From Nitrospirae bacterium RIFCSPHIGHO2_01_FULL_66_17 (lineage in GTDB: Bacteria > Nitrospirota > Nitrospiria > 2-01-FULL-66-17), in the NCBI GenBank assembly GCA_001803875.1, contig MHEO01000032.1:1-34902 (forward strand): 34,902 bases of DNA, written 5' to 3'. The position numbers and the translations under genes are program-made. The notes under the pieces were generated by a model, which saw nothing but the letters and a program-made list of their open reading frames with translations, had not been told where the DNA came from and searched no databases. Shown piece by piece: positions 21,078 through 31,558 of this stretch (position 1 is the stretch's first letter; each line of letters opens with the position of its first letter).

Positions 21078-21128
21078 CGCCCCCTGTCCCAGTTGCCGCC
21101 GACCGCCGGTTGACACACCACGACGCCT

Positions 21129-21743
21129 TTGGCTAGAATCCCCGCCGTGCATCGGTTTCCCCTCAGTCCAAAGCCGTGGTGGTGTCTCGGCCTCGCCCTT
21201 CTCGTCGGCGCCGTCGTCGCGTGTGAAAAAAAAGACAAGCCGCCGGTGTCCGATGCGCCGCCCCCCGCCGCGTCATCGGGAGCGCCGGCCGATCCGAAGA
21301 TGGCGAAGGTCATCGAGGAGATCATCGCTTACAAGGCGAGGGTCGACAAGGATCCGAACGACGTCGAGGCGCTCGCCGCGATGGGCAACGCGAACATGTC
21401 GTTGGGACGCTTCGATCACGCCAAGGACTGGTACGAGCGCGCGCTCAAGATCGATCCGAACCGCACCGCCACCCGGATGGACCTCGCCGTGGCGTTGCGC
21501 TACCTCGGCAAGCCGGACGAGGCGATCGCCGAGCTCAAGCGCGTGCTGGCCAAGGAGCCCAAGAACGCCGGGGCGCTGTACAACCTCGGGGTGGTTCTGC
21601 TGGAGGACAAGCAAGACGCCAAGGGAGCGATCGCGCGGTGGGAGACGCTGATGAAGGCGCACCCCGATCATCCCCAGACGGCCCAGCTCCGGCAAATGGT
21701 CGAGCAGATCAAGCATCCGACCCCGTCCCCGCCCGGCGGGTGA
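21129..21743 (+). CDS. TPR-repeat lipoprotein (paralog of 13700..14383)
   Basis: Lipobox LLVGAVVAC. TPR repeats ALAAMGNANMSLGRFDHAKDWYERALKIDPN..., collinear with the other TPR lipoprotein. Start uncertain (TTG 21129 or downstream GTG). Confidence 0.75.
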   Translation: MARIPAVHRFPLSPKPWWCLGLALLVGAVVACEKKDKPPVSDAPPPAASSGAPADPKMAKVIEEIIAYKARVDKDPNDVEALAAMGNANMSLGRFDHAKDWYERALKIDPNRTATRMDLAVALRYLGKPDEAIAELKRVLAKEPKNAGALYNLGVVLLEDKQDAKGAIARWETLMKAHPDHPQTAQLRQMVEQIKHPTPSPPGG

Positions 21744-24223: not shown

Positions 24224-25036
24224 GTGAACGCGGCTGATCTGGAAGCCCACGTCGGACTGATTCGCTCGCTGGCGGCGTTTGGCGGGCTGGGGCTCCTGCT
24301 CGCGCTCGAAGCGTGGCGGCCGTTTCGCGCGCCCGTGCAGGCCAAGCTCGGCCACGTCGCCGTCAATCTCAGCGTCGCGGGGACGAATGCGGTCGCGGTC
24401 AACCTCGTCTTCGGCGGGCTCCTCTTGCTGTGGGCCGGGCGCGCGTCTGATGCGGGGTGGGGCCTCTTTGCCGCCCTCGGGCTTGGCGGCGCGCCGCGCG
24501 TCGCGGCCTCGATCGTCGCGCTGGACCTGATCTTCTACGGCGTCCACTGGGCGAATCACCGTGTCCCCGTTCTCTGGCGCTTCCACCGGGCGCATCACAG
24601 CGATCTGGATTTCGACGTGACCACCGCGCTCCGCTTCCACCTCGGGGAGGTGCTCGTCTCCACGGGGGTGAAGGCCGCGTGCATTGTCGCGCTCGGCGTG
24701 CCGCCCCTGGGGCTCGCGGTGTTTGAGATGATGTTGCTGGCCGCCGCCCAGTTTCAGCACAGCAACCTGCGCCTGCCGGGACCGTGGGACGCGCGCCTCC
24801 GCGCGCTGATCGTCACGCCCGACATGCACCGCATCCACCACTCGCGGGTGCCCACCGAGCACAACGCCAACTTCGGCACGATCTTCTCGGGCTGGGACCG
24901 CCTGATCGGCACCTACCGGATGGCGGTGCGCCAGGAGGACATCGCGATCGGCCTGGCGTCGTATCCCTCGCTCGACCGGGTGACCTTTCTCTGCTTCTGG
25001 GGTATGCCGTTTGGACCCGGCTGTCGGCAAGGCTAG
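24224..25036 (+). CDS. Fatty acid hydroxylase / sterol desaturase family membrane di-iron enzyme
   Basis: Histidine boxes HWANH, HRAHH and HRIHH plus several TM segments. GTG start. The TAG stop lies inside the first CTAG of repeat copy C. Confidence 0.8.
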   Translation: MNAADLEAHVGLIRSLAAFGGLGLLLALEAWRPFRAPVQAKLGHVAVNLSVAGTNAVAVNLVFGGLLLLWAGRASDAGWGLFAALGLGGAPRVAASIVALDLIFYGVHWANHRVPVLWRFHRAHHSDLDFDVTTALRFHLGEVLVSTGVKAACIVALGVPPLGLAVFEMMLLAAAQFQHSNLRLPGPWDARLRALIVTPDMHRIHHSRVPTEHNANFGTIFSGWDRLIGTYRMAVRQEDIAIGLASYPSLDRVTFLCFWGMPFGPGCRQG

Positions 25037-25210
25037 GAGCCTGTCCATGAAGGGTCATCTGCGGCGTTGTCGCTTCGGAATCCCTCCTCACGTACGAACC
25101 AGTACGCTCCGGGGGGATTCCTCGCTCCGCCTTGCATCTGACCCTTCCTGAACAGGCTCCCGCGAACGGGGGGCAGGCTCAAACGCCCGATGACTCGGAC
25201 GGGCTCCTAG
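25033..25210 (+). repeat. Palindromic MITE/REP-like element, copy C
   Basis: CTAGGAGCCTGTCCATGAAGGGTCATCTGCGGCGTTGTCGCTTCGGAATCCCTCCTCACGTACGAACCAGTACGCTCCGGGGGGATTCCTCGCTCCGCCTTGCATCTGACCCTTCCTGAACAGGCTCC then ...GGGCAGGCTCAAACGCCCGATGACTCGGACGGGCTCCTAG. Long imperfect hairpin plus tail. Confidence 0.85.
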
Positions 25211-25252
25211 GACGCGTCGCCCGTTCGCGGTTCGGCCGGAACCAGGGTTGCC

Positions 25253-26576: not shown

Positions 26577-27041
26577 ATGGCCCGGCTTCAGACGAAGACC
26601 CTCTGGCTCATCACCGCGGCCGCTGCGGCGCTCGTCCTCCTGCTGCAGTTCTGTCCCGCCGCTCGCCGTCACAACGTCTTGACGCTCACCCTGTCGCAGG
26701 ACACGCTGGCGATCGACGTGGCCGACTCGCCCGAGCGTCGCTTATTCGCGCTCGGGATGCTCGACCGCTTCCGCCCCGGGCGCGGCCTCCTGCTCGTCTT
26801 CGACGACGGCACCCCGCCCCGCGTCTGGTCGAAGGCGCTCCAGGTGGAGGCGGACCTGCTGTGGCTTGACGAGACGCGGCAGATCGTCGGCCTCGATCTG
26901 AGCGCGCGTCCGTGCACCCAGGATCCCTGCCCAGAATACTCCCCCGAGCGCGGCGCCGTCTCCGTCCTCGTGCTGCCGCCGGGATCCGGGCGGGACGCGG
27001 CGCTGGCGCCGGGTCAGACCGTGTTTCTGCAGCCGGCGTAG
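26577..27041 (+). CDS. DUF192 (COG1430) family protein with signal/anchor
   Basis: N-terminal hydrophobic LWLITAAAAALVLLL. Core LAIDVADSPERRLFALGMLDRFRPGRGLLLVFDD...LLWLDETRQIV resembles the DUF192 pattern. The TAG stop lies inside the start of repeat copy D. Confidence 0.6.
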   Translation: MARLQTKTLWLITAAAAALVLLLQFCPAARRHNVLTLTLSQDTLAIDVADSPERRLFALGMLDRFRPGRGLLLVFDDGTPPRVWSKALQVEADLLWLDETRQIVGLDLSARPCTQDPCPEYSPERGAVSVLVLPPGSGRDAALAPGQTVFLQPA

Positions 27042-27217
27042 GAGCCTGTCCAGGAAGAGCCATCTGCGGCGTTGTCAGTCGGCCTTGCGTGCTCACGTAC
27101 GAACCAGTACGCTCCGCGCGCAAGGCCTCCTTCCGCCTTGCATCTGGCCCTTCCTGAACAGGCTCCCGCGGACGCGGGGGCAGGCTCCAACGCCCGATGA
27201 CTCGGACAGGCTCTTAG
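27038..27217 (+). repeat. Palindromic MITE/REP-like element, copy D
   Basis: TAGGAGCCTGTCCAGGAAGAGCCATCTGCGGCGTTGTCAG...CCTTGCATCTGGCCCTTCCTGAACAGGCTCCCGCGGACGCGGGGGCAGGCTCCAACGCCCGATGACTCGGACAGGCTCTTAG. The core is divergent, while the arms and tail are conserved. Confidence 0.85.
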
Positions 27218-27248
27218 GAGGAGGTCGGCGTTGCGCGGGTTTCGCCCG

Positions 27249-27920: not shown

Positions 27921-28481
27921 ATGAACCCGACGGCGACGACGAGCCGCCGTGTCGCCGGGCTCCGACGCCACGCTCGGTCCGCGCTGTGGCTGGCGGCGGG
28001 GGCGCTCCTGTATGCGGCGTGGACCCACGCGCCGTGGGCGTACCGTGCCGCGGGATCCGCGGGGGTCGAGGAGGCGCTGGTCTCCCGCGCGATCGACGGC
28101 GACACGATCGAGCTCGCCGACGGCGAGCGGGTCCGGTACATCGGGATCGACACCCCGGAACTCTACCGCCGCTCGGGGTCGGAGTGGGTCTACCGGCCCC
28201 AGCCGCACGCCGAGCAGGCCTGGACCTTCAACCGGCGGGCGGTCGAAGGCCGCACCGTCCGGCTCGAATCCGACGTCGAGCGCCGCGACCGGTTTCAGCG
28301 CCGCCTGGCCTACGTCTACCGGGATGGCCGCCTCGTCAATGCGGATCTGGTGGAACAGGGGTTGGCGAGCGCGATGACGATCCCACCCAACACGCAGCAC
28401 GCCGATCTGTTCCGCCGTCTCGAGCGCGAGGCCCGCGACGCGGGTCGTGGCCTCTGGGCGACCGAGGGGGCTTCACCGTGA
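27921..28481 (+). CDS. Membrane-anchored thermonuclease (staphylococcal nuclease, SNase-like)
   Basis: N-terminal TM SALWLAAGALLYAAW. SNase motifs AIDGDTIELADGERVRYIGIDTPE, then RFQRRLAYVY and NADLVEQGLA...EREARDAGRGLW. Confidence 0.85.
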   Translation: MNPTATTSRRVAGLRRHARSALWLAAGALLYAAWTHAPWAYRAAGSAGVEEALVSRAIDGDTIELADGERVRYIGIDTPELYRRSGSEWVYRPQPHAEQAWTFNRRAVEGRTVRLESDVERRDRFQRRLAYVYRDGRLVNADLVEQGLASAMTIPPNTQHADLFRRLEREARDAGRGLWATEGASP

Positions 28482-29011
28482 TCCGCTTCCCGCGAAGGGT
28501 CCATCGCCGTGCGTCCTTGGCGCAGGCCGGATTGCTACGCGATCCGCAGGGAAGGAGAGGGTTACATTCCGCGCCCTTGGCGCACGCCGGATTGCTGCGC
28601 GATCCGCATGGAAGGAAAGGATTACATTCTGCGCCCGTGGCGCAGCTCGGATTTACATTGATCGAGATCATGATCGTGATGGCGATCATGGGCATTCTCA
28701 TCACGATTGCCGAGCCCTCCTACCGCGCTCAGACCATCAAAGCCCGCGAGACCGCGCTCAAGAAGGATCTGTTCGTGATGCGGGACGTGATCGATCAGTA
28801 CGCAGCCGACCACGCGCGCTATCCCGAGTCGCTCACAACCCTGGTGGACGAGTCCTACCTCCGTGGCCTGCCGGTCGACCCGTTCACCGGCGCCTCGGAT
28901 ACGTGGATCGAGATCCGGGAAGCCGAAGGCGAGGAGCCCGGCGGCGTGTTCGACGTGCACAGCGGGAGCAACCGCGTGGCGCTCAACGGGACGGCATACA
29001 ATGAGTGGTGA
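28478..29011 (+). CDS. GspG/PulG-like major pseudopilin (prepilin-type N-terminal methylation domain) with unusually long repeated leader
   Basis: Mature N-terminus G|FTLIEIMIVMAIMGILITIA, followed by a GspG-like body (KARETALKKDLFVMRDVIDQYAADHARYPESL...YLRGLPVDPFTG). The longest start is GTG 28478 (GTGA overlap with the SNase stop). Alternative starts are TTG 28592 and GTG 28637 (the latter gives MAQLG|FTLIE). Start unresolved. Confidence 0.8.
   Translation: MIRFPRRVHRRASLAQAGLLRDPQGRRGLHSAPLAHAGLLRDPHGRKGLHSAPVAQLGFTLIEIMIVMAIMGILITIAEPSYRAQTIKARETALKKDLFVMRDVIDQYAADHARYPESLTTLVDESYLRGLPVDPFTGASDTWIEIREAEGEEPGGVFDVHSGSNRVALNGTAYNEW
28481..28650 (+). repeat. Tandem 60-bp repeat (about 2.8 units: partial 28481-28530, 28531-28590, 28591-28650) encoding the GLLRDPxGRxGLHSAPxAxxG leader module
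   Basis: Units ATTGCTaCGCGATCCGCAgGGAAGGAgAGGgTTACATTCcGCGCCCtTGGCGCAcgcCGG and ATTGCTgCGCGATCCGCAtGGAAGGAaAGGaTTACATTCtGCGCCCgTGGCGCAgctCGG are in frame with the pseudopilin. A fourth, dispersed unit lies at 29018..29080. Confidence 0.85.
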
Positions 29012-29555
29012 GGGCGGGTTGCTTCGCGATCCGGATGGAAGGAAGAACTGTTTTCATTCTGCGCCGTCGGCGCAGGGCGGATTTTCCTATCTCTTTGCGC
29101 TGTTTGCCATCGTCCTGGTGGGGCTGAGCATGATGGGGGCGAACGCGCAGTGGAAGACGATGATGCAACGGGAGCGCGAGGTGGAACTCCTGTTTCGAGG
29201 CGATCAGTACCGGCGCGCCATCAAAGCCTACGTGGAAGCCGTCTCGGCGGCGAAGCAATATCCCCTCCGCGTCGAGGATCTGCTCAAAGACCCGAGGACG
29301 TCCAAGCGCCACCTCCGCGCGCTGTATCCCGACCCGATGACCGGGGAGGCGCTCGCTCCGGTGCTGTGCGGCAATGGGCGTGTCAAAGGGGTGGCCAGTT
29401 CCAGCGAAGCGGCCACGCTCAAGCGGGACAACTTCCCTCCGGCGTACGCCCAGTTCACCTCCGCCACGACGTACCGGCAATGGATCTTTCAGTACGACCC
29501 GTCGCAGGTTCCCGCGCAGCCGGGTCAACCCCAGCCTCCCCCGCCGCCCTGTTGA
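29001..29555 (+). CDS. Prepilin-type N-terminal domain protein (minor pseudopilin-like, no Glu+5)
   Basis: ATG 29001 overlaps the preceding gene by 11 nt. Leader MSGEGGLLRDPDGRKNCFHSAPSAQGG|FSYLFALFAIVLVGLSMMG. Pro-rich C-terminus. Confidence 0.65.
   Translation: MSGEGGLLRDPDGRKNCFHSAPSAQGGFSYLFALFAIVLVGLSMMGANAQWKTMMQREREVELLFRGDQYRRAIKAYVEAVSAAKQYPLRVEDLLKDPRTSKRHLRALYPDPMTGEALAPVLCGNGRVKGVASSSEAATLKRDNFPPAYAQFTSATTYRQWIFQYDPSQVPAQPGQPQPPPPPC
29018..29080 (+). repeat. Dispersed copy of the 60-bp pseudopilin-leader repeat (63 bp, in-frame 3-nt insertion)
   Basis: GTTGCTTCGCGATCCGGATGGAAGGAAGAACTGTTTTCATTCTGCGCCGTCGGCGCAGGGCGG aligns with the units at 28531-28650. Confidence 0.8.
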
Positions 29556-29558
29556 CCG

Positions 29559-30674
29559 ATGGAGACGCTCTCTGCGTGGCGGCATCACGTGGGCCGCGCG
29601 GCGCGTTCCGCGTGGCGCAGCCCGACGATCCGGCGCTACGCGCCCGCCACGGTGGTCATCCTGGGGATCGCCGCCGCGCCGTTTGCGCTGATCGCCTTGC
29701 TCGGCGAATCGACGACGTCGAGCGTCGCGCCCGAATTGGCGGGTCTCCAGGGATGGATCTCGTCCGAGCCGGTGACGCTCGCGGCGCTGCGGGGCAAGGT
29801 CGTGATCGTCGACTTCTGGACCTATAGCTGCATTAACTGTCTGCGGACGATCCCATACTTAAACGCCTGGGACGAACGCTACCGCGATGACGGCCTGGTG
29901 ATCATCGGTGTGCACAGCCCCGAATTTGCCTTCGAGCGGGACCCGGGGCGCGTGGAGCGCGCGGTGCGGCGCCTCCAGATCCGCTATCCGGTGGCGATCG
30001 ACAGCGACAAGCGCACGTGGCGCGCGTACGCCAATCAATACTGGCCCCACAAGTACCTGATCGACCGCGGGGGCAACATCCGCTACGAGCAGATCGGGGA
30101 GGGGGGGTACCGGGAGACGGAGCAACACATCCGTGAATTGTTAGCCGAGGACGGCCGCGATCCCGGCCCGGCGTCCGCCGAGGTCCAGCCGGAGGCCGTG
30201 GACATCAAGGCGATCGCCACGCCCGAGATCTACCTGGGAACCTATTTCGGCCAATTCCTGGGCAACCCGCTGGGGCTGCGTGGGATGCGCGCGGCGGTCT
30301 ACGACGAGCCCGAGACGATCGAACCGAACCTGTTCTACCTGGTCGGCCGGTGGGCCGCCGGCGAGGAGGCGATCGCCTCGGTGGGGTCGGGGGACCACAA
30401 GATTATCCTTCGGTATACCTCCCGGGCGGTCAATCTTGTGGCGGGCGCGCCCGGGCGGGAGCTCGATGTGGAGGTCCTGCGGGACGGCCGGCCGCTGACG
30501 GTCGAGACCAAAGGGGCCGACGTCGTGATCGACGCGCGCGGCCGGGCCGTCATCCGAGTGGGCGAGGAGCGGCTGTACCGGCTCATCGACGACCGGGCCG
30601 GTTACGGGACGCACACGGTGACGGTGATCGTCGACCGGCCGGGCCTGGAAGCGTACACGTTCACATTCGGATAG
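29559..30674 (+). CDS. Membrane-anchored thioredoxin-fold protein, DipZ C-terminal-domain-like (CxxC = CINC) with C-terminal beta-sandwich
   Basis: TM VVILGIAAAPFALIALL. VVIVDFWTYSCINCLRTIPYLNAWDERY...GVHSPEFAFE...WPHKYLIDRGGNIRY matches the DipZ/redoxin pattern. The ~170-aa C-terminal domain ends ...LEAYTFTFG. The TAG stop lies inside repeat copy E. Confidence 0.75.
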   Translation: METLSAWRHHVGRAARSAWRSPTIRRYAPATVVILGIAAAPFALIALLGESTTSSVAPELAGLQGWISSEPVTLAALRGKVVIVDFWTYSCINCLRTIPYLNAWDERYRDDGLVIIGVHSPEFAFERDPGRVERAVRRLQIRYPVAIDSDKRTWRAYANQYWPHKYLIDRGGNIRYEQIGEGGYRETEQHIRELLAEDGRDPGPASAEVQPEAVDIKAIATPEIYLGTYFGQFLGNPLGLRGMRAAVYDEPETIEPNLFYLVGRWAAGEEAIASVGSGDHKIILRYTSRAVNLVAGAPGRELDVEVLRDGRPLTVETKGADVVIDARGRAVIRVGEERLYRLIDDRAGYGTHTVTVIVDRPGLEAYTFTFG

Positions 30675-30827
30675 GAGCCTGTCCATGAATGGTCATCTGT
30701 TGCGTTGTCGCTTCGGAATCCCTCCTCACGTACGACCAAGTACGCTCCGGGGGGATTCCTCACTCCGCCTGGCATCTGACCATTCCTGAACAGGCTCCAC
30801 CACCCCAATACTCGGACACACTCCTAG
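30672..30827 (+). repeat. Palindromic MITE/REP-like element, copy E (shortest; tail partly deleted)
   Basis: TAGGAGCCTGTCCATGAATGGTCATCTGTTGCGTTGTCGCTTCGGAATCCCTCCTCACGTACGACCAAGTACGCTCCGGGGGGATTCCTCACTCCGCCTGGCATCTGACCATTCCTGAACAGGCTCCACCACCCCAATACTCGGACACACTCCTAG. Exactly intercistronic. Confidence 0.85.
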
Positions 30828-30835
30828 GAGCGCCG

Positions 30836-31558
30836 ATGACCGCATGGTTGAAACAGCCCGGATTTCTGAGCCCCTACGGGACGCTGGGCGCGGATATGAG
30901 TTACGTCCTTGCCGTGGCGTTCACGGTGCTGTTCCTGGTCGGGTGGCGGTTCGCCAGGCGACGACGCGGCCAGGCGCACCACGTCGTGACGCTGTCCGCC
31001 ATGGCGGCGATGCTCGCGTATTTCGTCGCGTACTACGTCAACCGCGGGCTGGGCGCCCTGGCGTTCGAGGGCGAGGAGGGGTTCGGCGGACCGCCGGAGC
31101 TGTATGAGTCGTTGTTCCGCCCGCTCCTGACCTTCCATATCCTCGTTGTCACGATCGGCCTGATCCTCGCCGTGTACATGATCGTCCTGGGGTTTCGGAC
31201 GTCGGTCAAGCGCGGCGAGGAGCGGGGACTGGTGGCCGGTTCACCCCGAGGGACCGCGCTGAGGTTCACCGGCTGGGCGTTGCTCGCGTCGGTCGTCCTG
31301 CCGATGGCCCTCTTCGGTGTGCGGGTGCTGTTCACCAACCCGACGATCGGAAAATTCCTGGGGTGGCTCATCAGCGGCGTGTTGGTGGGGCTCGGCGTGA
31401 TCGCGATCGAATGGGTGGGACGGGCGATCTACCCCGACGGCGAGCGCCGGCACCGCGCCCTCGGGACCTTCACCATGATCCTCTACGTGCTCGCGCTGCT
31501 GACCAGCACGGCGACGTACGTCCTGCTCTACGTGATCTGGCCGCCCCTGATCGGCTGA
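30836..31558 (+). CDS. Polytopic membrane protein, DUF420-like
   Basis: Start moved to ATG 30836 (MTAWLKQPG...), because the track N-terminus translates repeat copy E. 5-6 TM helices. Motifs WRFARRRRGQAHHVVTLSAMAAMLAYFVAYY and ERRHRALGTFTMILYVLALLTS resemble DUF420. The AGGAG supplied by the repeat end sits 5 nt upstream. Confidence 0.5.
   Translation: MTAWLKQPGFLSPYGTLGADMSYVLAVAFTVLFLVGWRFARRRRGQAHHVVTLSAMAAMLAYFVAYYVNRGLGALAFEGEEGFGGPPELYESLFRPLLTFHILVVTIGLILAVYMIVLGFRTSVKRGEERGLVAGSPRGTALRFTGWALLASVVLPMALFGVRVLFTNPTIGKFLGWLISGVLVGLGVIAIEWVGRAIYPDGERRHRALGTFTMILYVLALLTSTATYVLLYVIWPPLIG

Follow-up and report, generated by a model that had tools for sequence, protein, structure and literature searches.

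In a class III signal peptide the leader ends in Gly or Ala, a hydrophobic stretch of about 20 residues comes next, and position +5 is often Glu; the long leaders known in this class have unique sequences of roughly 15-30 residues (PMC10191384). Among repeats that lie inside protein genes, the Rickettsia palindromic elements (RPEs) are described as Rickettsia-specific units of about 100-150 bp that occur at varied positions within mature enzymes (Ogata et al. 2000/2002, via PMC10969869). A literature search on repeats within prepilin leaders yielded no relevant paper. REP elements are extragenic by definition. By comparison, two adjacent orphan pseudopilin genes in the window (the whole 34,902-nt stretch of DNA analysed here) have predicted leaders of 58 codons, if gene 1 starts at GTG 28478, and of 27 codons, counted for gene 2 from ATG 29001, and both leaders contain copies of a repeat unit that also occurs elsewhere in related genomes.

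Repeat units in two orphan pseudopilin genes

The earlier note on this DNA described a tandem 60-nt unit with a dispersed copy in the next gene, and this arrangement is borne out: upstream of its G|F site, gene 1 has two full 60-nt units and a degenerate one, and gene 2 has a single 63-nt unit (Table 1). Tandem Repeats Finder reported 28511-28653 with a period of 60 (2.4 copies, 86% matches, score 216), while motif searches located GGATTGCTNCGCGATCCG at 28529, 28589 and 29016, with 0.35 occurrences expected, and CATTCYGCGCC-N3-GGCGCAG at 28565, 28625 and 29055, a count that was matched in no shuffle. Units 1 and 2 are only 85% identical to each other, and unit 2 is 93% identical to the orthologous unit in L123. 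The degenerate unit 0 gave a partial nhmmer match (28509-28533, E=0.043) and is kept in L122 and L123. The claim that every copy is in frame holds for the full units, the terminal ones of which abut GGA TTT, but not for the 5' half of unit 0, which lies in another reading frame. The synonymous differences cited in favour of translation exist, but of the 9 differences that separate units 1 and 2, only 3 are of this kind.

Table 1. Coordinates of host genes, repeat units and target sites in the window.
Feature	Position	Strand	Basis or remark
Gene 1, GspG-like orphan pseudopilin	28478..29011	+	ORF; Pfam N_methyl PF07963, E=6.2e-07
Gene 2, second orphan pseudopilin-like protein	29001..29555	+	ORF
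Degenerate unit 0	28481..28528	+	Remaining: GATCCG motif, second hairpin (TGCGTCC-TTG-GCGCAG, about 28510-28525), GCC
Full unit 1, 60 nt	28529..28588	+	Covariance-model match 28529-28594, E=4e-15
Full unit 2, 60 nt	28589..28648	+	Covariance-model match 28589-28654, E=4.5e-17
Gene 2 single unit, 63 nt	29016..29078	+	Covariance-model match 29016-29084
GGA TTT, Gly(-1)/Phe(+1) codons, gene 1	28649..28654	+	Sequence; pilin census
GGA TTT, Gly(-1)/Phe(+1) codons, gene 2	29079-29084		Directly 3' of 63-nt unit
Empty site, promoter-like GGTTGACA-N17-TAGAAT	21108..21139	+	L072-window alignment

The units lie immediately upstream of G|FTLIE at 28652 in gene 1, where the mature part begins with F, and of G|FSYLF at 29082 in gene 2. 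In gene 1 the 3' terminus of the element (CGGATT) is itself the prepilin cleavage site, and the surrounding region (...AQLG|FTLIEIMIVMAIMGIL) has the features of a class III (prepilin) signal peptide. The corresponding region of gene 2 (...AQGG|FSYLFALFAIVLVGL) has the hydrophobic stretch and lacks the Glu at +5, and a Pfam search with gene 2 gave zero matches. Both starts had been taken to overlap the upstream stop. The GTG of gene 1 overlaps the SNase stop codon (GTGA), and the orthologs P0002 and P0003 have their start called at the same position, with ATG in L123; the ATG of gene 2 lies 11 nt inside gene 1. Each of the seven family genomes has one Peptidase_A24 match (C50:21410-21733 in the window's own genome). 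Copy number, which the earlier note proposed to compare among homologs, does vary, from 1 to 4.3 units among orthologs, and gene callers and Pfam accept the long-leader forms up to 4.3 units, that is, a leader of about 107 residues.

Dispersal, insertion sites and folding of the unit

Confined to one Nitrospirota family, the 60-nt unit is a short non-coding repeat that is mobile or, at the least, polymorphic for insertion. A covariance model gave 11, 70, 2, 32, 25, 47 and 17 matches in the seven genomes of this family and zero matches in 74 genomes from 16 other (sister) families of the same class, and a GTDB-wide scan with an exact pattern returned more than one match only in four Nitrospirota MAGs. 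The translated module, compared with 5.8 billion proteins, gave only 3 matches, all of them gene 1 orthologs, and Rfam gave no match at the gathering threshold over the window, nor at E<=1 over 28400-29150. Some copies lie in pseudopilin leaders, others in intergenic DNA adjoining promoter -35 boxes, and others still are nested within a repeat of larger size. A seeming in-frame insertion within another gene (L073) turned out to be intergenic.

Five filled/empty pairs of orthologous sites have exact boundaries and reveal exact 60/63-nt insertions directly 3' of (G)GNTT. L104 carries a 60-nt insert with GTT on its flanks relative to contig C9 of the window's own genome, L085 carries two units following GTGCGGGTT relative to C33, and in the sister genome G001 the L072 array, of two units, is joined to GGTT|GACA, the same -35 box that the window has as an empty site at 21108. 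The host genes behave in the same way. The gene 2 ortholog in L123 is unit-free (ATG AGT GGT GAG GGC GGT|TTT TCC, MSGEGG|FSYLF), with the same ATG as window gene 2, that in L122 has the 60-nt form of the unit, and unit 1 of gene 1 corresponds to an exact 60-nt gap in the two closest relatives, L122 and L123. Similarly, gspG reads MTREHG|F in the window's own genome and MTREDG-(28 codons)-A|F in G001, where the unit follows codon 6. The flanking direct repeats are GTT (L104), GTGCGRRTT (L085) and AGGGCGGNTT (gene 2), but the 3' copy of each belongs to the element consensus, such that they do not amount to a clean duplication of the target. The TT at the junction belongs to the TTGACA -35 box in intergenic DNA and to GGN TTY, the Gly(-1)-Phe(+1) codons, in prepilin genes. 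Because the element inserts after (G)GNTT and has CGGRTT at its own end, any sequence that started with TT at the junction is restored, and the Gly-Phe codons are thereby rebuilt after insertion.

In an alignment of 99 unique copies, made by sequence only, covariation supports two stems, and the unit folds into an outer stem and an inner hairpin, as RNA or as single-stranded DNA. In the outer stem P1, GAYCYG close to the 5' end pairs with CRGRT at the 3' end of the same unit, forming a subterminal inverted repeat of 5 bp that covaries (pair 15-63: TA 43, CG 35, TG 5, AT 3; pair 17-61: CG 78, TA 12). The inner hairpin P2 is GC-rich, has 7 bp and the consensus CTGCGCC-N3-GGCGCAG, and includes three pairs with 3-4 pair types each that are 89-96% paired. 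In the window, P1 pairs 28541-28546 with 28588-28593 in unit 1, 28601-28606 with 28648-28653 in unit 2 and 29028-29033 with 29078-29083 in the gene 2 unit, and P2 occupies 28569-28585, 28629-28645 and 29059-29075, respectively. Of the two hairpins suggested previously, CTGCGCC-N3-GGCGCAG is therefore upheld by covariation, whereas GGATTGC/GCGATCC lacks compensatory pairs and has 15 and 12 unpaired cells at two positions; the partner of GATCCG is the unit's own 3' CGGATT in place of GGATTGC. Folding energy was unremarkable and uninformative (z = -0.88).

Reading frame and competing explanations

All 39 units in pilin contexts have lengths divisible by 3, compared with 11 of 24 intergenic ones (Fisher p=2e-7, although the copies are related by descent and p-values overstate the evidence), and frame-0 stops are found in none of the 39 pilin units, in 8 of 24 intergenic units and in 7 of 20 nested units. 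As the sequence is GC-rich, the other two frames of the pilin units contain stops in only 4-5 of 39 units, so that stop counts in pilin units alone have low power and the contrast with the intergenic copies carries the argument. Furthermore, a 60-nt tandem duplication keeps the frame without any selection, and hence the frame argument rests on the terminal units, on the -3/+3/+24/-30 variants and on the intergenic contrast. The earlier proposal that the units are translated very probably applies, judging from this comparison of sequences: the units in pilin contexts are in frame, stop-free and multiples of 3 in length, and native starts are kept in relatives, including the unit-free gene 2 ortholog.

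The same proposal saw in the unit a conserved pseudopilin leader module (LLRDPxGRxxxHSAPxAQxG), which would be needed by the pseudopilins, for example for targeting, cleavage timing or chaperoning, and whose copy number would tune function. That the unit in pilin genes is always in frame and stop-free, that gspG, H, I and J carry it, as do both orphan pseudopilins, across six genomes, and that it is net positively charged, as class III leaders are, would all agree with such a role. We nevertheless regard this as very unlikely, and the module claim gives way to a unit that is dispersed genome-wide, insertion-polymorphic and dispensable in orthologs. Short canonical leaders of 6 residues without the repeat occur in close orthologs (gene 2 in L123 and gspG of the window's own genome), G002, a genome of the same genus, is almost unit-free, the pilin census found no unit in the type IV pilins of the window's own genome, and the element is also abundant between genes, where stops and lengths not divisible by 3 occur. 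Codon-level conservation likewise went against the module, with no third-position excess in the leader: differences by codon position number 7-11, 1-3 and 2-8 of 38 in the leader and 3-5, 2-3 and 14-18 of 120 in the mature part. Nucleotide changes that come in pairs affect the amino acids of both arms, and in the middle of the unit the reading frame differs between copies through compensated +1/-1 shifts, which change the peptide (ERLSPAP versus GDFHSAP) and retain the DNA motif GATT. The unit peptide itself is under no selection.

Covariation in two stems would also be expected if the units formed a structured 5' UTR or cis-regulatory RNA, with translation starting at a GTG or TTG in the last hairpin loop (MAQxG|F), the GGAAGG box serving this start and the stems controlling initiation. 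The GTG at 28637 that had been put forward as an internal start is present, in the P2 loop of unit 2, and is possible for gene 1, where it would give MAQLG|FTLIE, and G001 copies have GGAGG-N7-TTG at -10; an internal start at -5 does not generalise, however, since GTG or TTG at -5 occurs in 7 of 16 module-bearing genes and is absent from the other 9, gene 2 being among those without it, and no in-frame start codon follows the TTG at -20/-21 in gene 2 or gspI. Upstream starts, on the other hand, are retained: the empty-site ortholog uses the upstream ATG, and in G001 gspG the ATG and the Shine-Dalgarno sequence are still those seen in the unit-free gspG of the window's own genome. Conservation of the GGAAGG box is just as strong in intergenic copies upstream of promoters, a UTR would need neither a length that is a multiple of 3 nor the absence of stops, and neither Rfam nor the folding z-score lends support, all of which makes a UTR role unlikely. 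Alternatively, the units may be DNA-level regulatory sites upstream of promoters, such as arrays bound by a dimeric regulator or UP-like elements, the pilin copies being internal operon control sites. P2 is palindromic, and of 18 intergenic array ends, 7 run directly into TTGxxx-N16-18-TAnnnT, compared with 1.6% of TT positions in the background. But the palindrome covaries instead of being conserved base by base, which argues for base pairing and not for protein recognition; the promoter at 21108-21139 is conserved without any array and hence predates the element; pilin copies lack a -10 box at the right distance; and copy number varies between near-identical relatives. We consider such a function highly improbable.

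A probable disposable leader and its relation to known systems

We believe that the unit is probably a selfish hairpin-forming repeat that sits in frame at the Gly-Phe codons of pseudopilin genes and is translated as a disposable leader. The version in pilin genes would have exactly 20 codons (or 19 or 21) and no stops in the gene frame, and consequently translation would run from the native start (GTG 28478 in gene 1, ATG 29001 in gene 2) through the unit or units into an intact G|F site downstream. The extended leader would remain cytoplasmic and be cut off by the one prepilin peptidase that the genome encodes, so that the mature pseudopilin would stay the same, and selfish DNA may in this way find a safe harbour in the leader. 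Copies that have an unsuitable length or contain stops would be purged from leaders but persist between genes, and tandem arrays could expand either by re-creation of the target at the 3' end of each copy or by unequal recombination. In gene 1, the in-frame GTG at -5 or a conserved TTG at -20 could be the start, in which case the upstream units would be 5' UTR, and the units may confer a regulatory benefit.

Far more tentatively, and with considerable doubt, we suggest that the element is a homing mini-transposon, akin to the single-strand elements of the IS200/IS605 type, in which the internal guide GAYCYG pairs with the element's own 3' end and with CGGNTT-like targets, and of which a 20-codon, stop-free subfamily has specialised on prepilin Gly-Phe codons, with the host leader peptidase erasing the element from the protein. 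Such guide pairing would explain site specificity, head-to-tail arrays and target regeneration. If so, the element would represent, at the level of the protein, an equivalent of introns and inteins, and no known class III leader would be longer than those that it yields, which reach about 107 residues. Candidate mobilising genes were sought in the family genomes. RAYT-like Y1_Tnp genes are present in all seven, but nhmmer found no unit in their flanks; small GIY-YIG genes, present in five, are ordinary and single-copy and also have no unit in their flanks. Links to either enzyme were therefore dropped, and no related autonomous IS with the same ends was found in these flanks.

A selfish repeat that occupies and rebuilds a discarded signal peptide would live inside genes at almost no cost and would account for the puzzling, very long and repetitive N-termini of pseudopilin genes in this lineage, which annotation should neither trim nor distrust. 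Should the long leaders prove to be synthesised and cleaved, they would raise the known limit of what prepilin peptidases accept, and the natural series, in which one mature protein carries 0, 1, 2, 3 or 4 units, could serve studies of leader recognition. Moreover, the strict (G)GNTT target, the regeneration of the junction and the covariation between an internal segment and the end offer a testable handle on the mobilisation mechanism.

Compared with known systems, the element resembles RPEs in being a small palindromic selfish repeat with many copies per genome, inserted in frame into protein genes, where RPEs are, and the present units would be, tolerated as a translated extra peptide; all 39 pilin-context units are stop-free, in-frame palindromic repeats within ORFs. 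It differs in its length of 60 nt, its unrelated sequence and its direct tandem arrays, in its single position at Gly-Phe codons within a protein part that is cleaved off, and in also targeting promoter -35 boxes. With REP/BIME elements and REPINs, mobilised by RAYTs (Y1/HUH), it shares short GC-rich hairpins and tens of dispersed, sometimes arrayed copies, but many of its copies are intragenic, in pilin leaders, it lacks a GTAG-type head, and the RAYT-like genes are not flanked by units. As in IS200/IS605, insertion occurs 3' of a short specific motif with no obvious classical duplication, and GAYCYG, by pairing with the end of the element itself, may parallel the guide/cleavage-site pairing of IS608. 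Like bacterial MITEs (ERIC, Correia/NEMIS, BOX; PMC10969869), which are non-autonomous, below 300 bp, equipped with inverted repeats, polymorphic in presence or absence and occasionally intragenic as in-frame fusions, the unit is short and non-coding, with many dispersed copies and presence/absence polymorphism at orthologous sites; its inverted repeat, however, is only 5 bp and subterminal, its flanking direct repeat of 3-10 nt is part of the consensus, no parent IS was found in the flanks of the Y1_Tnp and GIY-YIG genes, and it forms head-to-tail arrays. Finally, the leaders themselves recall the long class III leaders of type IVb pilins and of the type IVa pilins of Streptococcus sanguinis (PMC10191384), which are likewise hydrophilic, cytoplasmic, variable in length and end in Gly or Ala, with removal by prepilin peptidase being predicted here. 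In contrast to these, the predicted leaders of 27-107 residues consist of repeated copies of a mobile element and vary in length between near-identical strains.

A tandem structured repeat at the prepilin cleavage codons

The tandem 60-nt repeat that the earlier note had described immediately before the cleavage sites of two pseudopilin genes was confirmed by Tandem Repeats Finder (period 60 nt at 28511-28653, 2.4 copies, 86% matches), by the positions of the unit motifs and by the junctions with the codons GGA TTT. Within the window, both conserved motifs of the unit are confined to 28529, 28589 and 29016, far above shuffled expectation in the motif search, and the terminal units directly adjoin GGA TTT, which specifies Gly(-1)/Phe(+1) in the two pilin-like genes. 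Gene 1 (28478-29011), a GspG-like orphan pseudopilin, matches Pfam N_methyl; gene 2 (29001-29555) has a hydrophobic segment and no Pfam match. Neighbouring genes encode a PilZ protein, an SNase-like nuclease and a thioredoxin-like protein.

Positions of repeat units and other repeats in the window and elsewhere in its own genome
Feature	Location	Strand	Length	Remark
Degenerate unit, gene 1	window, ends at 28528			reading-frame phase
Full unit (unit 1), gene 1	window 28529-28588		60 nt	reading-frame phase
Full unit (unit 2), gene 1	window 28589-28648		60 nt	reading-frame phase
Leader unit, gene 2	window 29016-29078		63 nt	reading-frame phase
Larger dispersed element	window 25034-25215, 27039-27222, 30672-30838		~175 nt	unit-free copies
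Decayed 1.5-unit copy	contig C41:6917-7019	minus		ends in GGCTT
G/C-tract repeat unrelated to the unit	contig C39:33950-33790	minus		upstream of gspH; translated ...PPPLLQRGARGDF...

Structure was assessed on 99 unique copies that had been aligned by sequence only. The GC hairpin proposed previously (CTGCGCC-N3-GGCGCAG), here termed P2, is 89-97% paired across these copies and covaries at three positions (CG 60/TA 14/GC 10; TA 55/CG 37; GC 73/TA 11/CG 7/AT 3). In addition, an outer stem, P1, forms between GAYCYG (model positions 14-18) and the CRGRT at the 3' end of the same unit (60-64), with pair 15-63 occurring as TA 43/CG 35/TG 5/AT 3 and pair 17-61 as CG 78/TA 12. The other proposed hairpin, between the 5' flank GGATTGC and GCGATCC, did not hold up, showing many mismatches and no compensatory change. 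Folding energy is unexceptional (z = -0.88), and there is no Rfam match.

Dispersal within one family and exact insertion

The window's own genome, a 1.4-Mb MAG (65% complete, 66% G+C), yielded three further copies by BLAST, all on contig C39 and all directly 5' of G|FTL(I/L)E in the gspH-, gspI- and gspJ-like genes of a T2SS-type operon, in which gspG reads MTREHG|FTLIE without a unit. A pattern search detected the unit in five of the six other genomes of this Nitrospirota family, with all 34 genomes from outside the family negative, and a GTDB-wide exact scan gave more than one match in four Nitrospirota MAGs only. A covariance model built from 37 units matched the seven family genomes 11, 70, 2, 32, 25, 47 and 17 times and, at E<=1e-5, none of 74 genomes from 16 other families of the class, which identifies the unit as a lineage-specific repeat dispersed genome-wide. 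In G002, a genome of the same genus with just 2 model matches, the gspG leader MTRDRNHAPSAAG|F and the gspJ leader …PSAPSAQGA|F with intact hairpin (L035/L039) look like decayed in-frame remnants of the unit.

Inspection of 40 further loci revealed three contexts. In pseudopilin genes, units lie in frame 5' of G|F, either alone or in arrays that reach 3.5 units, and a database protein (P0001) has a 4.3-unit form with a leader of ~107 residues. In intergenic arrays, units measure 61-64 nt and the final GGNTT runs directly into a -35-like TTGACA that is followed, 16-18 nt further on, by a -10 box; such fusions occur at 7 of 18 array ends compared with 1.6% of background TT positions. Finally, in relatives (for example L074, L076 and L091) units are nested at GCGTT|G within the ~175-nt element, which occupies gene boundaries, carries inverted repeats at its termini (TAGGAGCCTGTCCA...GGACRGGCTCCTAGGA) and contains a CGTACGA-N-GTACG hairpin. 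A dedicated pilin leader module, as first envisaged, is thus not borne out, the unit being dispersed genome-wide and outside pilin genes too.

The decayed copy on C41 ends at the Gly-Phe of a membrane protein of the RDD family (MEKLINYSSSTPLARAGFWRRAVAAIVD...). The coding sequence of this protein opens within the unit, its ATG and first 16 codons being read in another frame; judged by this overlap, the element may have donated the protein's N-terminus. On C39, the unrelated G/C-tract repeat sits in the open frame preceding the gspH unit, and the sequence is broken by 25 N. In another genome (G004), the leader region of gspH contains a similar 'PPLSKGE' repeat in place of the 60-nt unit.

Comparison of filled and empty sites located the insertions exactly. 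A 60-nt insert flanked by GTT in the sister genome G001 (L104) corresponds to a single GTT without insert on the own contig C9, and two units following GTGCGAATT at L085 correspond to an uninterrupted GTGCGGGTT|CGAGC on C33. The promoter-like GGTTGACA-N17-TAGAAT at window 21108-21139, downstream of a GGDEF gene and without an array, is conserved in G001, which has a two-unit array (L072) inserted exactly at GGTT|GACA. The most telling comparison is with two contigs ~95% identical to the window (L122 and L123). Gene 1 in both lacks exactly the 60 nt of unit 1, showing that copy number does vary among orthologs. In L122, gene 2 has the window's 63-nt unit in a 60-nt form; in L123 it is an empty site, ATG AGT GGT GAG GGC GGT|TTT TCC (MSGEGG|FSYLF), with a canonical 6-residue leader starting at the ATG equivalent to window 29001; an ortholog of this kind, unit-free with a short canonical leader, is what the earlier note had set against its own reading. 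L122 (a contig of GCA_040961595.1) also has an extra 45-nt G-rich insertion at ~1975-2020, between the gene 1 stop and the gene 2 unit, which is absent from the window and L123 and alters the gene 2 overlap and start context.

Moreover, gspG of G001 shares its Shine-Dalgarno sequence, ATG and first five codons with the window genome's unit-free gspG, after which 84 nt, made up of one unit and a 24-nt fragment, precede A|FTLIE. At this locus (L008, contig C21) Ala, not Gly, precedes Phe+1 after insertion (…HAEGA|FTLIE); Ala is permitted there in class III leaders and is unusual for GspG. At every filled site the insert follows closely on (G)GNTT and has CGGRTT as its own 3' end, so that the junction sequence is rebuilt. 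Read from these alignments, the unit is an insertion, and we consider it almost certainly a dispersed, insertion-polymorphic repeat.

Frame constraint and selection in pilin leaders

All 39 distinct pilin-context units have lengths that are multiples of 3 (60 nt in 37 units, 57 nt and 63 nt in one each), as are the array-level variants of +24 and -30 nt, versus 11 of 24 intergenic units (Fisher p=2e-7). In-frame stops are found in none of the 39 pilin units in the gene's frame, in 8 of 24 intergenic and in 7 of 20 nested units. Gene 1 could instead be initiated at GTG 28637 or at TTG codons; a GTG or TTG at -5 is present in only 7 of 16 module-bearing genes, and some, gene 2 and gspI among them, lack any in-frame start 3' of the TTG at -20/-21. 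The native starts are conserved: gene 1 begins with ATG in L123 and with GTG in L122 and the window, the start and the SNase stop codon overlapping throughout, and the empty-site ortholog of gene 2 begins at the same ATG. From unit lengths, stops, start codons and native starts taken together, it is very likely that translation of the pilin genes runs through the terminal unit at least. Translation of the upstream gene 1 units is likely; a 60-nt tandem duplication would preserve frame by itself.

When the window is compared with its two close relatives, the mature part differs at 3-5, 2-3 and 14-18 of every 120 sites in the first, second and third codon position, the third-position excess being the classic pattern, and the leader at 7-11, 1-3 and 2-8 of 38. 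Among copies, compensating +1/-1 shifts keep the GATT motif and the 60-nt total and alter the encoded middle segment. The synonymous differences cited in favour of translation do exist, but account for three of the nine positions at which the two window units differ. The leader peptide itself is thus not under selection; conservation applies to the nucleic acid and to an open frame. The proposal that the unit is translated, rather than being only a DNA or RNA element, therefore stands in part: the unit is probably translated, as an unselected peptide.

A probable disposable leader and comparison with known systems

Our data establish a structured 60-nt repeat with exact insertion polymorphism, a (G)GNTT target, junction regeneration and a frame constraint in pilin genes only. 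We think it fairly likely that the unit is a selfish repeat, translated as a disposable prepilin leader and then cut off. Class III leaders remain cytoplasmic (PMC10191384); a leader with extra 20-codon blocks would likewise be made, stay in the cytoplasm and be removed, leaving the mature pseudopilin unaffected and the insertion nearly neutral. Each of the seven family genomes has one Peptidase_A24 gene. Arrays may grow as each copy recreates the target at its own 3' end. Unit 1 shares only 85% identity with unit 2, versus 93% between unit 2 and its own ortholog, so unit 1 is no recent local duplicate. Y1_Tnp genes occur in 7/7 family genomes and small GIY-YIG genes in five, none of them flanked by the unit.

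A literature search found no paper on repeats in prepilin leaders. We rejected identity with REP sequences, as the copies are intragenic with no linked RAYT gene, and the element fits the definition of a MITE only in part. The closest published counterpart is the Rickettsia palindromic elements, selfish palindromes found in frame within protein-coding genes (PMC10969869). The present element differs from these in its size, its direct arrays, its defined target that is rebuilt on insertion and its location in a segment that is cleaved off, and is a variant of the known selfish palindromic repeats tolerated in frame.
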